DNA from: Planctomycetota bacterium
GTDB lineage: Bacteria; Planctomycetota; JAZDJP01
Length of the DNA: 64,000 nt
Direction of reading: 5' to 3'
Assembly: GCA_043803805.1 (NCBI GenBank)
Contig: JAZDJP010000056.1
Location: 11,680-75,679, forward strand
Part shown: positions 8,790 to 13,315 of the stretch, piece after piece
Layout: every line of letters begins with the position of its first letter
How positions within the stretch are numbered: the first letter of the stretch is position 1
The notes under the pieces: model-generated
Told to the model about the DNA's origin: nothing
Database searches by the model: none
What the model saw: the letters and a program-made list of their open reading frames with translations, nothing else
Position numbers and translations under genes: made by a program

Positions 8790-11700
8790 ATGCGCCGATT
8801 TGCATGGTGTGCCGCGATCGCGCTGGTCCCCTGGCTCTCCGGGATGCTTCCGGCAGAAGGCGCGGCGGCCCCCAACCGTCCCGATCCTGAAGTTTCCATC
8901 CTCTCGCCTGCCGACAGCACCGCCACAAACGCCGCAACAATCGCCGTCCGCGTCCATTTCCGGGCGAAGCTCGTGGGGAAGAAGGAGAAGCCCGTCGGGC
9001 GCGTGAAGGCGGTCATTCTCAAGGCCGACGGGGTCGAGGCGGGGCGGTATGCGCCTTCGGCGAAGGAACAGGAGGGGGATTGCCTGTTCACGCTCGCCCT
9101 TTCCGACGTTCCGGACAAGGTGGTTGCTCTCCAAGCCTTCGCGGAGCAGAGCGGGGAAACCGTCGCCTCCGATGTCGTGAATCTCCTCGTGGACCGCACG
9201 CCGCCGGTCCTCTCGGCGGCCCTCGATCCATTGCCGAACGCCGCCGGCTGGAACAATTCCGACGTGACGGTGACGTTTTCAGCGACGGACGCCCTGTCCG
9301 GGGTGGTCTCGGTTTCGGCTCCCGTCACGGTGACGGCGGAGGGCGCGGGACGCGTTGTTTCCGGATCGGCCGCCGACCGCGCGGGCAATGCCGGATATGC
9401 CGCGGTCACGGTCAACTTGGACCGGACGGTTCCGGCATTCAACGATATTTCCCCGGCCCCGGGCGCCCGGATCCGGGAGCGCCGGCCGCGGTTCAAAGCG
9501 GACTTCACGGATTCTCTCTCCGGGGTGGTTGTGGCGGCGGTCCGGGTACGCTTGGACGGTAACGACTTCACCGGATCCATCGGCGGTGCGGACGGGGGCG
9601 TGCTCACGGAAAGCGGGTTCAGTTACAACTGGCCGTCGGATCTGCCCGATGGGACGCACACGCTTTCAGTGGAGGGGGCGGACCGGGCGGGGAACACCGC
9701 GATGGTAGCATCGTCATTCATGGTGGATGCGGCGGCGCCGGAAGTCCAGATTGCCTCGCCCGTCACGGTGGCGGCGGCGGAGGCGGTTCTTGCCGGGACG
9801 GTATCGGCGGACACGGTTTCCATGACCGCGACGGGGGATACAACGGCCATCGTAGGATCGCCGGTGTTGTCCGGAACGGCGTTTTCCGTGGCGTTGTCAA
9901 ACCTGCCGCCGGGGGGGACGACCGTCACCCTCACGGCATCGGATGACCTTGGTAACACGAGCGACCCGGTGACGGTGTTGGTCGTCCGGCAAAACGCGCC
10001 GCCTGTCGTAACGCTCCTGTCTCCCGCGGATGGCGCCGATTGCCGTCCCGGCGACATGGTGACAATCGAGGCGATGGCATCGGATCCCGACGGCGCGGTG
10101 ACACGCGTGGAAATCCATGACGGCGACGCGCTGTTGAAAACGTTCGAGACGTCCCCGTACCGGTTGACACTGGCGGTCCCGGCGGGCCTTCATGACATCA
10201 CGGCGGCGGCCGTGGATGACGCCGGGAACCGGACGGTGTCGGCGCGGGCGCGCCTGACGGCGGCGTGGCCCTACAGCGCGGCGAAATTCGGTCCGGAGGG
10301 GTTGACTCTCAGGGGGATCCGGATCAACAACCGGGGGCAGGTCATCGGGAACGTGCCCCGGGCTTTCTTCTGGGACGGCGTGACGCTTTCTTATCTGGAT
10401 GTGGCCAATGCCACCGTGATGGCGACGGGATTGAACAACCTGGGCGATGTGGTCGGGAACTGGAGAGGCGATCGGATCGTTTCGTTTTTCCGGAGCGCTG
10501 CGGGCGCGATGACGGAGATGGCGCCGTATGTGGATTTGTCAAACGGGTATGCGGTCGAGTACGATGATGAGCCTGCGGCGATTAACGACAGCCGGACGAT
10601 TGTCGGGAACACGTACTATCTCGAGCGGCCGGTGGTCTGGGCCGGGCCTGGGGCGACCCCTGCTCCCCTCATGAATGCGTATTCCGACGACTATCCATAC
10701 CTGAGAGGTCGAGTCACCGCCATCAACAACGCCGGGAAAGTTCTCGGGGATGTTGTGTACAGTTCGGATCGTTGGGGAAGCGTATCCTTCTGGCGTGCCG
10801 TATGGTGGAATCTCGGGAACCCCGTTCCGGCCGCGTTTTTGAATTCGGACGACGGCAATTATGTGTACAGTCATGCGGTTGACATCAATGACCGGGGCGA
10901 GGTGCTGTTTGCGCGGGAGGCGAGTCAGGATCGGACATTTCGTTTATGGCAAAATGGAGAGGTGACTTCGGTGTCGTCCTACGGAGCCCTCCGGCCGCCG
11001 GGTGCGATCAACGCCTCCGGCACGGTGGTGGTCGGGGGCGGGGGGTATCCGAATCCCTTCACGCTTCGGACCGGGACCGGGGAGGTTGTTTCGGCGCAGT
11101 CTCTCTGCGACTGGAGTATTCCCGCGATGGGGGGCATGTGTTACGTCAACGACATCAACGATCTCGGCCAGATCTTGGACGCGGACGTGATTTTGTCGCC
11201 GGTGAATTTGATGGCGGGTGAGGTGGGGGAATGGGACGAGGAGCAAAATGGAGTTTTCGTGAATCAGTACAGGGTGCCGGCGGATGCGGTGGCGATGGTG
11301 GTGTCGGGACTGCTTCCGGACATGGAGGATGGTGTGGTGACGCTTTCGGTGACAACAGGGGCAGGAAAGGTGAGAGTCCGGGATGCGGATGGCGTGGAAC
11401 TGGCGTTGCCGTATTCCTGGACGGCGCCGGGAGACATCCCCGCGCCGAAATTCCACAAGGTATTATTCCTCGAAGGCGTCACGCCCAGCGATGCCCCGAA
11501 GGATGTGGAACTGACGCTCACCTACCGCCGCCTGGGTTGCGCCACCTGCGGGGAGGCGAATGACAAGGTGCTCGTGACGGTGGGGGCGATTGACATGGCG
11601 GTGGACGGGGACCGCGACGGCGAAATCAAATTCGACAACCCGGAAGACCGGAAACTGATGTTTTGGGTGAATGACGATCATGACGTAATTCACTGGACGG

Positions 11701-13315
11701 ATTCGGGTAGTTGGGAAGGAATGGTCAACGATGTTGTTGAGGAGGACGATATCGGCAGCAATGTGGGAGACAGCATCAAGGATTGTCAGGATAACCTCAT
11801 TTCCTGCCGACGGGATCTGGAGGATTTTGCGCGGTTGTGGGTGCGGCGGGACGACTTCAACCCGGCGACGGATCAGATCTTGTTCAAATGGACGAACATC
11901 ACCTCGGGATCGCCGGGAATCCGGATATTCCGCGCCGCGAATGAAAACGGGGATACGGGTTATCTCACGGATGAGAACGTTCGGCAAATCAGTACCGTGG
12001 TGTGGAACAATTCGGACGGGAGCATGAACAACGCGTATTACAACTACGATCCGTATGCCGATCGGGACAACGGGATGGGGCTATGCAAGGTGGTTCCGGG
12101 CGGGGTGGTGGATGTGACGAGCGTCTATGAATGGCAGATGGGAAAACCCAATTATTTCATCTTTGAAGGGGTAAACCCTGGGACGGGCGACCTTGAGGTG
12201 AGGTTTGTCCGGAGCGGCGTTGTGATGGGTAAAACCCGCGTGAGACTGGAGTTGAAAAAAATCACGGACATGTATCAGCGGTGGACGGTGGGAGAGGACG
12301 AAAACGCGCCGCCGGGAAATCTGGCGGACGTCGGAACGTTCCGGTATCCCGCGCCGCAAACTCCGGACGAGCGGGACATGATCCTGTTTGTCCACGGTTA
12401 CAACCTGCAGACATGGGAGAAGGACCGGTACGCGGAGACGATGTATAAACGGCTCTGGCACACGGGATACAAGGGGCGGTTCGGGTTGTTCCGATGGCCG
12501 ACGACGGTGTGCGAATACGGGACGTGTTTCGACAAGAGCGAACTGCAGGCGTGGGGATCGGCGGGAGGGTTTTTGACGTTGCTCAACCGGTTGAACGCGG
12601 GGGGTATTCGGGGAAAATCCGGATTCTGGCACACAGCCACGGGAACGTGGTGGCGGGGGAGGGGTTGCGGTTGGCGGGGAATAAACAGGTGGTGGATACC
12701 TTCGTGGCGAGCCAGGCGGCGGTGGCGGCGCACGGTTATGATGGCGCGGCGCCGTATGCGCCGTTCGGGGCGATGGACGACGGCACCCCCAATGCCTACC
12801 GGGAGTATTGGACGCCGCTAGCGGATGGGCAGTTGATCGTGGGGGCAATGGGCGGCGACGGGAAACTTCCGTACTTCACGGCGACGCGTGGGGCGCGGCG
12901 GTTTATCAACTACTTCAATAAGAAGGATTACGCATTGGACAAATGGGTTTTGGACACCCAGACAAAACCGAACAACGGGGTGATGGGATGGACGGGGTGG
13001 TATTACGGATATGATTCGGCGGGTGGTTTGTTCTACAAGAAACCGGCGCCGGTGTCGTCGGAGCGGATAGCGCTCATCTTGCCCGGAGAGACCTACGAGA
13101 TGTTTTCGTTCTGCGCGGAGGCGAGGTCGTACGCGCTGGGGCAGCAGGCGGGGGTGTCGGGCGGAATTTTCACGACGGTCGGCCAGGTGGATTTGGAGAT
13201 CGGGGATTATAATTTCGGGGATAAGCATCCTGGGCATAGCGGACAATTTCGGTCAACGTATGCAAAACGAAACAAGTATTGGGGACGGTTAATGCTGACT
13301 TATTACGGTGATTGA
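8790..13315 (+). CDS. giant secreted multidomain protein: signal peptide, Ig-like domains, HAF-type repeats and a C-terminal alpha/beta-hydrolase (DUF900-like lipase/esterase) domain; interrupted by a -1 frameshift in a G6 run at 12599-12604
   Basis: MRRFAWCAAIALVPWLSGMLPAEGAAAP is a signal peptide. Ig-like segments read TPPVLS...DALSGV and ...DSLSGV. There are at least 7 repeats of the form AINNAGKVLGD / GIRINNRGQVIGN / GLNNLGDVVGN, which match the HAF extracellular repeat (TIGR03803). The frame then reads ILFVHGYN...FRWPTT...AWGSAGGFLTLLNRLNAGG and ends in the G6 run. It resumes in the -1 frame as YSGKIRILAHSHGNVVAGEG, a nucleophile-elbow AHSxG motif. ORFs 8730..12821 and 12494..13315 are the two halves. 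GC drops from about 68% to about 55% from ~11600 onward. Confidence 0.6.

Follow-up and report, generated by a model that had tools for sequence, protein, structure and literature searches.

The DNA analysed here (the window) is a stretch of 64,000 nucleotides from a metagenome-assembled genome (MAG) held by NCBI under the label Planctomycetota bacterium, and all coordinates are window positions. At 8790-13315 it encodes a large, putatively exported protein that ends in a domain resembling the Ca-binding domains of protein arginine deiminases (PADs) and in a DUF900-type α/β hydrolase domain, and at 13316-14434 this is followed by a smaller partner gene. The first-pass annotation had taken 8790-13315 for a single gene, having read across a frameshift. 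The open reading frame (ORF) listing of this interval contains two ORFs in different frames, 8730-12821 (frame 0) and 12494-13315 (frame -1), with an overlap of ~330 nt, and 8790-13315 is not one open reading frame. The frames join at a run of six G residues (G6, 12599-12604), and the addition of one G to the large gene gives a continuous protein of 1508 amino acids (aa), the numbering of which is used below. The likely start of the gene is ATG 8790, which has GGAGGG 9 nt upstream and opens a signal-peptide-like N-terminus, MRRFAWCAAIALVPWLSGMLPAEG.

A split gene and its domains

The locus contains the following features:

8691-8714, + strand: terminator-like hairpin and T-run (pattern scan only), just 3' of the upstream ETF-alpha gene (Pfam)
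8790-12604, + strand: large gene, upstream part, frame 0, aa 1-1272 of the repaired protein; the deposited frame continues to a stop at 12819-12821
8790-8867, + strand: signal-peptide-like N-terminus, MRRFAWCAAIALVPWLSGMLPAEGAA, read from the sequence
8868-10244, + strand: Ig-like and OmpL47-type beta domains, aa 27-485 (Pfam Big_7 and Big_13, NCBIfam barrel_OmpL47)
10245-11189, + strand: seven HAF-like repeats, aa 486-800 (regular expression with shuffle control)
11565-12344, + strand: PAD-like beta-sandwich domain, aa 926-1185 (AF2 model, Foldseek, invariant columns)
12345-13315, + strand: DUF900-type α/β hydrolase domain, aa 1186-1508, broken by the frameshift
12599-12604, + strand: G6 run, site of the -1 frame shift
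12605-13315, + strand: large gene, downstream part, -1 frame, 236 sense codons and a stop, with the putative catalytic triad
13316-14434, + strand: partner gene, 372 aa, MFH1022959.1, first base directly after the hydrolase stop codon

In the public record, only the 1343-aa frame-0 product is annotated (MFH1022958.1, 'Ig-like domain-containing protein'), followed by MFH1022959.1; the two accessions are consecutive, and the -1 frame segment 12605-13315 has no entry. The public annotation of the locus is misleading, as the catalytic half of the gene is without an entry and the product is named for its Ig-like domains only. The terminator-like hairpin and T-run at 8691-8714 suggest that the large gene is transcribed apart from the ETF-alpha gene.

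The repaired protein carries the motifs ILFVHGYN (aa 1198), FRWPTT (aa 1234) and IRILAHSHGN (aa 1277), and it matches Pfam DUF900 (PF05990) over aa 1193-1300, across the repaired junction, with 26.2 bits against a gathering cut-off of 20.5. This match is limited to the first half of the model (positions 17-119 of 232), and in the deposited sequence it is split over two frames. Among 11 family members, Pfam matched DUF900 in ten and, weakly, LCAT in five and PGAP1 in two (PGAP1 at E 0.057). The putative triad consists of Ser1283 (12635-12637), Asp1380 (12926-12928) and His1483 (13235-13237) in the canonical Ser-Asp-His order, with Ser1283 invariant and the other two residues at least 90% conserved across 90 sequences. 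In the AF2 model, Ser1283 is flanked by a strand and a helix, the arrangement expected of a nucleophile elbow, and this elbow resembles that of pancreatic-lipase-related protein. The model and the conserved residues point to a DUF900-type Ser-Asp-His α/β hydrolase, structurally closest to lipases and phospholipase A1.

The last 583 aa of the protein were modelled by AF2 with 89 homologues (pLDDT 88.8, pTM 0.91), and the first ~260 residues of this region form a beta-sandwich. A Foldseek search of the PDB with this domain returned human PAD2, PAD3 and PAD4 as all of the top 43 matches (best E 3.5e-8). The domain contains the near-invariant acidic motifs VDxxRDG, FWxNxDxD and RDLEDFxRL, which align locally with 'LDVDADRDG' and 'EDCRDEKVYSKEDLKDMSQM' of PAD2 (cores 'DADRDG' and 'EDLKD'), and the DGDRDGE segment is found here at aa 939. 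In PADI2, the Ca sites 3-5 are located at residues 155-180 and Ca binding is required for activity (PMC8826395). Profiles of the whole module and of the PAD-like domain gave E values of 0.3 and 1.6 against PDB sequences (PAD2 at 1.6), which are not significant. Judged from the model, the domain resembles the Ca-binding N-terminal and middle domains of PADs, whereas the pentein PAD_C catalytic domain of these enzymes is absent and an α/β hydrolase stands in its place. Used alone as a query, the PAD-like domain retrieved 2349 representatives of 50%-identity clusters, 916 of them at E <= 1e-30. All 150 matches listed, a set that stops short of the weakest matches, among which true PADs could be located, have at least a few residues after the domain, and most have 300-370 further residues.

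The N-terminal two thirds are of a different kind. Between aa 150 and 480, Pfam Big_7 (85 bits) and Big_13 and the NCBIfam OmpL47-type barrel were detected. These domains and the signal-peptide-like N-terminus agree with the first-pass annotation, which had also correctly quoted all four motifs (DGDRDGE, ILFVHGYN, FRWPTT and IRILAHSHGN), called the first of them a Ca-binding-like segment, a reading supported by its position in the domain that Foldseek matches specifically to PAD2/3/4, and predicted the DUF900-like hydrolase. Its HAF repeats hold in part. The pattern [IL]N[NDA]x[GSR]x[VI][VIL] occurs seven times at aa 512-797 with a spacing of 36-54 aa, a number that was reached in 0 of 5000 shuffles, but the match to TIGR02913 (HAF_rpt), one stretch of 12 residues, has 16.7 bits (E 0.0054) where the cut-off is 22.65, and TIGR03803, the model named in the first-pass annotation, gave no match in NCBIfam scans of the large protein. 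Since the TIGR02913 score is under the cut-off, 'HAF-like' is the accurate term. Such motifs are rare in the family, and the idea that they are a regular companion of the hydrolase module was dropped, as two or more copies are present in just 2 of 69 long relatives. The first-pass annotation had further proposed to see whether C-termini vary among homologues of this N-terminus; a search with aa 1-837, in a protein collection that holds no close relative of this genome, recovered only the record's own protein at full length, the other matches covering 10-50% of the query through the Ig domains.

The frameshift at the G6 run

The two frames meet in the context GCGGGGGGTATTCG, and the shift is -1. 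The one-G repair reads ...LNRLNAGG-YSGKIRILAHSHGN... and restores a junction Tyr that is invariant in an alignment of 11 members (the repaired protein and ten relatives). A profile of 90 family members continues over the break, with positions 108-453 matching the first ORF, positions 454-653 matching the second and zero positions lost. On the 3' side of the run, the GC content at third codon positions (GC3) reaches 0.81 when read in the -1 frame, compared with 0.68 in frame 0. The -1 frame is open over 236 sense codons and keeps all invariant family residues; we estimate the chance expectation of such an open frame, from base composition, at ~5e-4. The motif IRILAHSHGN and the Ser, Asp and His residues are all encoded 3' of the break in the -1 frame, and the annotated 1343-aa product lacks these three residues because one G is absent from the run just before the nucleophile elbow. 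As deposited, the gene is predicted to be unable to yield an active hydrolase. The string GCGGGGGGTAT is present twice in the large gene, at 11038-11051 and at 12597-12610: at 11040 its six G residues encode Gly-Gly-Tyr in frame, and at 12599 one more G would be needed for the conserved Gly-Gly-Tyr.

We slightly favour a homopolymer miscall in the MAG over a recent inactivation as the explanation of this break. For this population there is one other assembly, Logan contig L001 (run SRR27925880). It begins 23 nt past the critical G6 run and covers window 12627-14594 (1.97 kb), over which it is identical to the window with zero substitutions except for the length of two G-runs: G5 in place of G6 at 13927-13932, and GG in place of GGG near 14580 (about 14578-14580). 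The G5 version breaks the partner gene in L001, and the window carries the intact G6. As the two assemblies differ in G-run lengths alone, G-run length calls are unreliable in the data for this population, and the differences have the look of homopolymer errors made in calling the underlying reads. The repair of the break at 12599-12604 likewise amounts to one absent G. When JGI metagenome contigs were scanned twice for exact matches to the left and right flanks of the G-run, none was found, and exact look-ups of the window proteins and of P0233, the closest partner homologue, found none in the contig index.

The frameshift may instead be real, in which case the locus would hold a recently decayed effector beside an intact partner (immunity) gene and would now make only a truncated 1343-aa surface protein without hydrolase activity. 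We regard this as a serious possibility that falls somewhat short of an even chance. Although the window has 76 homopolymer runs of at least six, full-length Pfam matches were obtained for the other genes checked in it, so that the window consensus is generally sound, and at the second differing G6 run (13927-13932) it is the window that holds the intact version. The partner gene is intact, and decay is also seen at relative loci fetched from other genomes (numbered L002 onwards), namely an in-frame TAA in place of the Tyr of the conserved MYERWTVG motif in L032 (~1804-1806), a frameshift in a family member in L064 (~10155-10338), and truncated or displaced module fragments in L040 and L064, including an isolated C-terminal module fragment after a partner gene in L040 (8653-8979). 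The open -1 frame, the complete set of invariant residues and the unbroken profile match argue against a real frameshift, and because of them any inactivation would have to be very recent; the second assembly, differing by G-run lengths only at two sites in 1.97 kb, argues in the same direction.

It is very improbable that the run is a deliberate switch, either by slipped-strand phase variation (G6 off, G7 on) or by programmed -1 ribosomal frameshifting on G_GGG_GGU to give the full-length enzyme: GCG GGG GGU formally fits X_XXY_YYZ, a -1 slip would produce exactly the conserved protein and the two assemblies do differ in G-run lengths, but the 105 nt 3' of the run fold no better than shuffles (z = 0.02), the relatives in the family alignment are unbroken proteins that need no G-run, six G residues are short for phase variation, and one of the two differing runs is an intergenic GGG/GG resembling sequencing noise. 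Programmed frameshifting was rejected on the first two of these objections.

Other same-strand overlapping ORF pairs in the window were considered as frameshifts and proved to be separate intact genes (hisB/hisC, trpE with an aminotransferase gene, and GH2 with its neighbour). Over the whole window, homopolymer runs of at least six on the + strand comprise 44 G-runs and 9 C-runs, and GC skew is positive in the profiled stretch 6000-17000.

The module family and its partner gene

The conserved part of the large protein is its last ~580 aa, comprising the PAD-like and hydrolase domains (the module). A family scan with one genome per species found it at 316 loci in species-representative genomes, and the best 80 of these 316 are almost all from Verrucomicrobiota. 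The relatives range in length from ~530 to more than 2400 aa and share only this C-terminal part, at 30-39% identity. In seven of them, the N-terminal regions contain LamG domains, bacterial TSP3 repeats, RCC1 propellers, Ig-like domains or nothing recognisable. Six fetched contigs (L024, L026, L036, L057, L061 and L083) are titled as 'uncultured Bifidobacterium', 'Bifidobacteriaceae' or 'Klebsiella' MAGs, with nearly all others labelled Verrucomicrobiota, and these may be mislabelled or chimeric bins.

The partner gene is a near-constant companion of the module. Of 95 module ORFs in the fetched loci, 85 are directly followed on the same strand by a homologue of the partner gene. Among the ten others, five have no room downstream and most of the remaining five are fragments of split genes, with at least L031 having no adjacent partner. 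In three annotated contexts, the protein encoded after the hydrolase has 347-360 aa and is a homologue of the product of window 13316-14434. Of 82 pairs, 44 show a 4-nt overlap between partner start and hydrolase stop, and in all others the two are no more than 14 nt apart; in the window, the start codon directly abuts the hydrolase stop, so the partner gene is probably translationally coupled. Its product has an N-terminal transmembrane helix, a disordered Pro/Ser/Thr-rich linker and two beta-sandwiches, the first transthyretin/CarboxypepD_reg-like and the second HmuY-like and ending in NPSGSRNLE. The structure model was built with proteins from the homology search, and a PDB search with its fold showed no relation to any known immunity protein.

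In at least 13 loci (L006, L010, L019, L026, L033, L035, L061, L063, L064, L067, L070, L083 and L084), one hydrolase is followed by two to four partner paralogues in tandem, whole hydrolase-partner cassettes are arranged in tandem in L034, L060, L064 and L083, and some carriers have several cassette copies per genome. A phage-type integrase gene stands divergently beside a 1036-aa family member and its partner (L004, 590-1759; L005, 350-1519). No description of the conserved module-plus-partner cassette was found in the searchable literature.

In the window, the cassette lies just upstream of purA-uppS (14680-16701), and in L002 a short cassette (3657-9152) is located between purA and uppS. 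L002 is from a distant genome, with purA 52% and uppS 51% identical to those of the window, and no other fetched locus has purA or uppS nearby. The shared neighbourhood is either a matter of chance or a common insertion neighbourhood.

The composition of the locus had been read in the first-pass annotation as a drop in GC from ~11600 to the gene end, marking a swapped C-terminal module. The fall from ~0.67 to ~0.55 is real, but it begins near 10300, at the junction of the Ig and HAF-like regions, where GC goes to 0.60, and reaches 0.55 near 11550; GC then rebounds to 0.64-0.67 at 12450-12900 and is low again past the gene end to ~14650. The module boundary and the compositional boundary lie at different places, and GC3 is little changed along the gene, with 0.79 in the Ig part (GC 0.67, a composition typical of the genome), 0.75 in the HAF-like, 0.71 in the PAD-like and 0.76 in the hydrolase part, in comparison with 0.78 ± 0.04 in 25 other window genes. 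The fall inside the large gene affects mainly the first and second codon positions. Since GC3 changes little, the GC drop in this gene reflects amino-acid composition more than codon usage, and recent horizontal transfer as its sole cause was rejected, as GC3 stays within or near the genome range. The partner gene is the only clear codon-usage outlier (GC3 0.57, GC 0.514), and the strongest sign of foreign origin is this gene, not the start of the module. No flanking direct repeats that would mark the borders of a mobile element and no Rfam match in the window were found. The family supports a module that is mobile between proteins with unrelated N-termini, but there is no evidence that it was swapped on this particular N-terminus.

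Possible functions of the cassette

We tentatively interpret the locus, with a likelihood that we put just below even, as a two-gene cassette of an exported lipase-like effector and its cognate immunity-like partner. The repaired first gene would give a Sec-exported 1508-aa protein, in which the N-terminal two thirds (Ig-like and HAF-like) may serve as a presentation or binding scaffold and the hydrolase may act outside the cell or on its surface as a probably Ca2+-dependent effector that cleaves esters or lipids. The product of the second gene is predicted to be anchored in the inner membrane with both beta-sandwich domains facing the periplasm, where it would bind the hydrolase and neutralise it in the producer, as an immunity or holding factor. 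Such a role is favoured over that of a pure foldase or anchor because of the arrays of partner paralogues, the decayed hydrolases beside intact partners and the multiple cassettes per genome.

In its widest form, which we consider speculative and on balance unlikely, this interpretation would make module and partner a large undescribed effector-immunity system of Verrucomicrobiota and related Planctomycetes-Verrucomicrobia-Chlamydiae (PVC) bacteria, with Sec-exported, Ca2+-switched lipases or phospholipases displayed on varied adhesive scaffolds, neutralised by a new type of membrane-tethered protein with two beta-sandwiches and working without known contact-dependent secretion machines. If this were so, the Ca-binding regulatory domains of arginine deiminases would also control an unrelated catalytic fold. 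An effector-immunity pair would represent a secretion-system-independent lipase weapon in a phylum with little-studied interbacterial antagonism, and an example, open to testing, of a Ca-binding domain of PAD type joined to a different enzyme. If the locus encodes only a secreted esterase and its helper, it would be an ordinary new family member.

Several observations weigh against an effector with its immunity protein. Neither the large protein nor seven relatives contain an RHS, PAAR, LXG or TPS/FHA-type trafficking domain, and no secretion-system gene, including type VI secretion system (T6SS) genes (VgrG, PAAR and Hcp), was detected among ~20 window genes scanned by Pfam. For an immunity protein, the partner is large (~350 aa). 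A 2024 survey of α/β hydrolases lists the function of DUF900 as unknown (PMC11878206). Finally, Pfam gave no PAD_M match at E <= 0.5 and no PAD_N match; because of this result and the non-significant sequence profiles, the relatedness to PADs is structural and Ca binding is inferred. T6SS genes were likewise absent from the three annotated relative contexts.

A serious rival, possible though in our view rather doubtful, is a secreted or surface-bound nutritional esterase or lipase with a dedicated helper, the partner being a steric foldase, a secretion aid or a membrane anchor comparable to the Pseudomonas lipase foldase Lif. In gene order, in tight coupling and in the partner's N-terminal membrane anchor, the cassette matches the lipase-foldase arrangement. 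In LipA/Lif operons, the gene of a secreted lipase is likewise followed by that of a periplasmic protein of ~350 aa with an N-terminal membrane anchor. However, the partner here is all-beta, having two beta-sandwiches where Lif has a helical scaffold, and several copies of it are often found in tandem. The N-termini of the relatives, with lectin-like domains, propellers, Ig domains and Ca-binding repeats, are typical of substrate-binding enzymes, and the neighbourhoods are in keeping with a nutritional role: glycosidases (fucosidase, rhamnosidase and GH2) are numerous in the window, and the cassette in L003 has a CE2/GDSL esterase and a GH130 enzyme as neighbours. The lack of toxin-delivery domains also fits a helper. 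In contrast, arrays with two to four partner paralogues and truncated hydrolase fragments are hard to reconcile with a helper and common in toxin-immunity loci, and the integrase linkage and atypical composition point to mobility.

For the effector with an immunity-like partner, the Tle/Tli pairs appear by analogy to be the closest functional precedent. Tle lipases that act in the periplasm have Tli immunity proteins located in the membrane or periplasm; Tle1 is toxic in the periplasm, and Tli3 is an outer-membrane lipoprotein (PMC9860674, PMC13133936). Both systems have a lipase-like serine hydrolase followed by the gene of a membrane-tethered protein that faces the periplasm, often in several tandem copies, but here the hydrolase has a Sec signal peptide in place of VgrG/PAAR-dependent delivery. 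Membership in the Tle families themselves (DUF2235, Lipase_3, DUF3274, PGAP1 and PLD) was rejected, as the best family is DUF900 and PGAP1 is weak and limited to 2 of 11 relatives.

Polymorphic toxins with Tox-ABhydrolase domains (Zhang et al. 2012, PMC3482391) also have a C-terminal hydrolase module behind many different N-termini, followed by a conserved gene of a small family, and the tandem cassettes and displaced fragments in the relatives add to the likeness. They differ from the present locus in that no known trafficking or processing domain is found here, no set of proteins combines this N-terminus with alternative C-termini, and the module keeps its PAD-like domain (among the 150 matches listed). 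The large protein is not demonstrably a polymorphic toxin in the strict sense. The effector of this type proposed in the first-pass annotation is supported by the conserved triad, by the mobility of the module between proteins and by a conserved gene at the position of an immunity gene; the known trafficking domains are missing, and an active hydrolase would not be expected from the gene as deposited.

DUF900 (PF05990) has been described for alpha-proteobacterial proteins of unknown function, and that description includes neither a PAD-like domain nor giant N-terminal scaffolds nor an obligatory partner gene. Homologues of cinquedea, a bactericidal archaeal phospholipase, mostly carry DUF900 (bioRxiv 10.64898/2026.06.10.730825); unlike the hydrolase-partner pair described here, cinquedea is a single-gene unit without a partner.

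Two further regions of the window, both on the - strand, contain large multidomain genes. At 48131-53461, two adjacent genes of ~888 aa each encode multiple WD40 repeats, and their GC content (0.56-0.59) is below that of their neighbours. A bacterial alpha-2-macroglobulin-type gene of more than 1800 aa with MG2, A2M and bait-region domains is located at 2-5428 and continues beyond the window start, adjoined by an alpha-L-fucosidase gene at 5429-6703.

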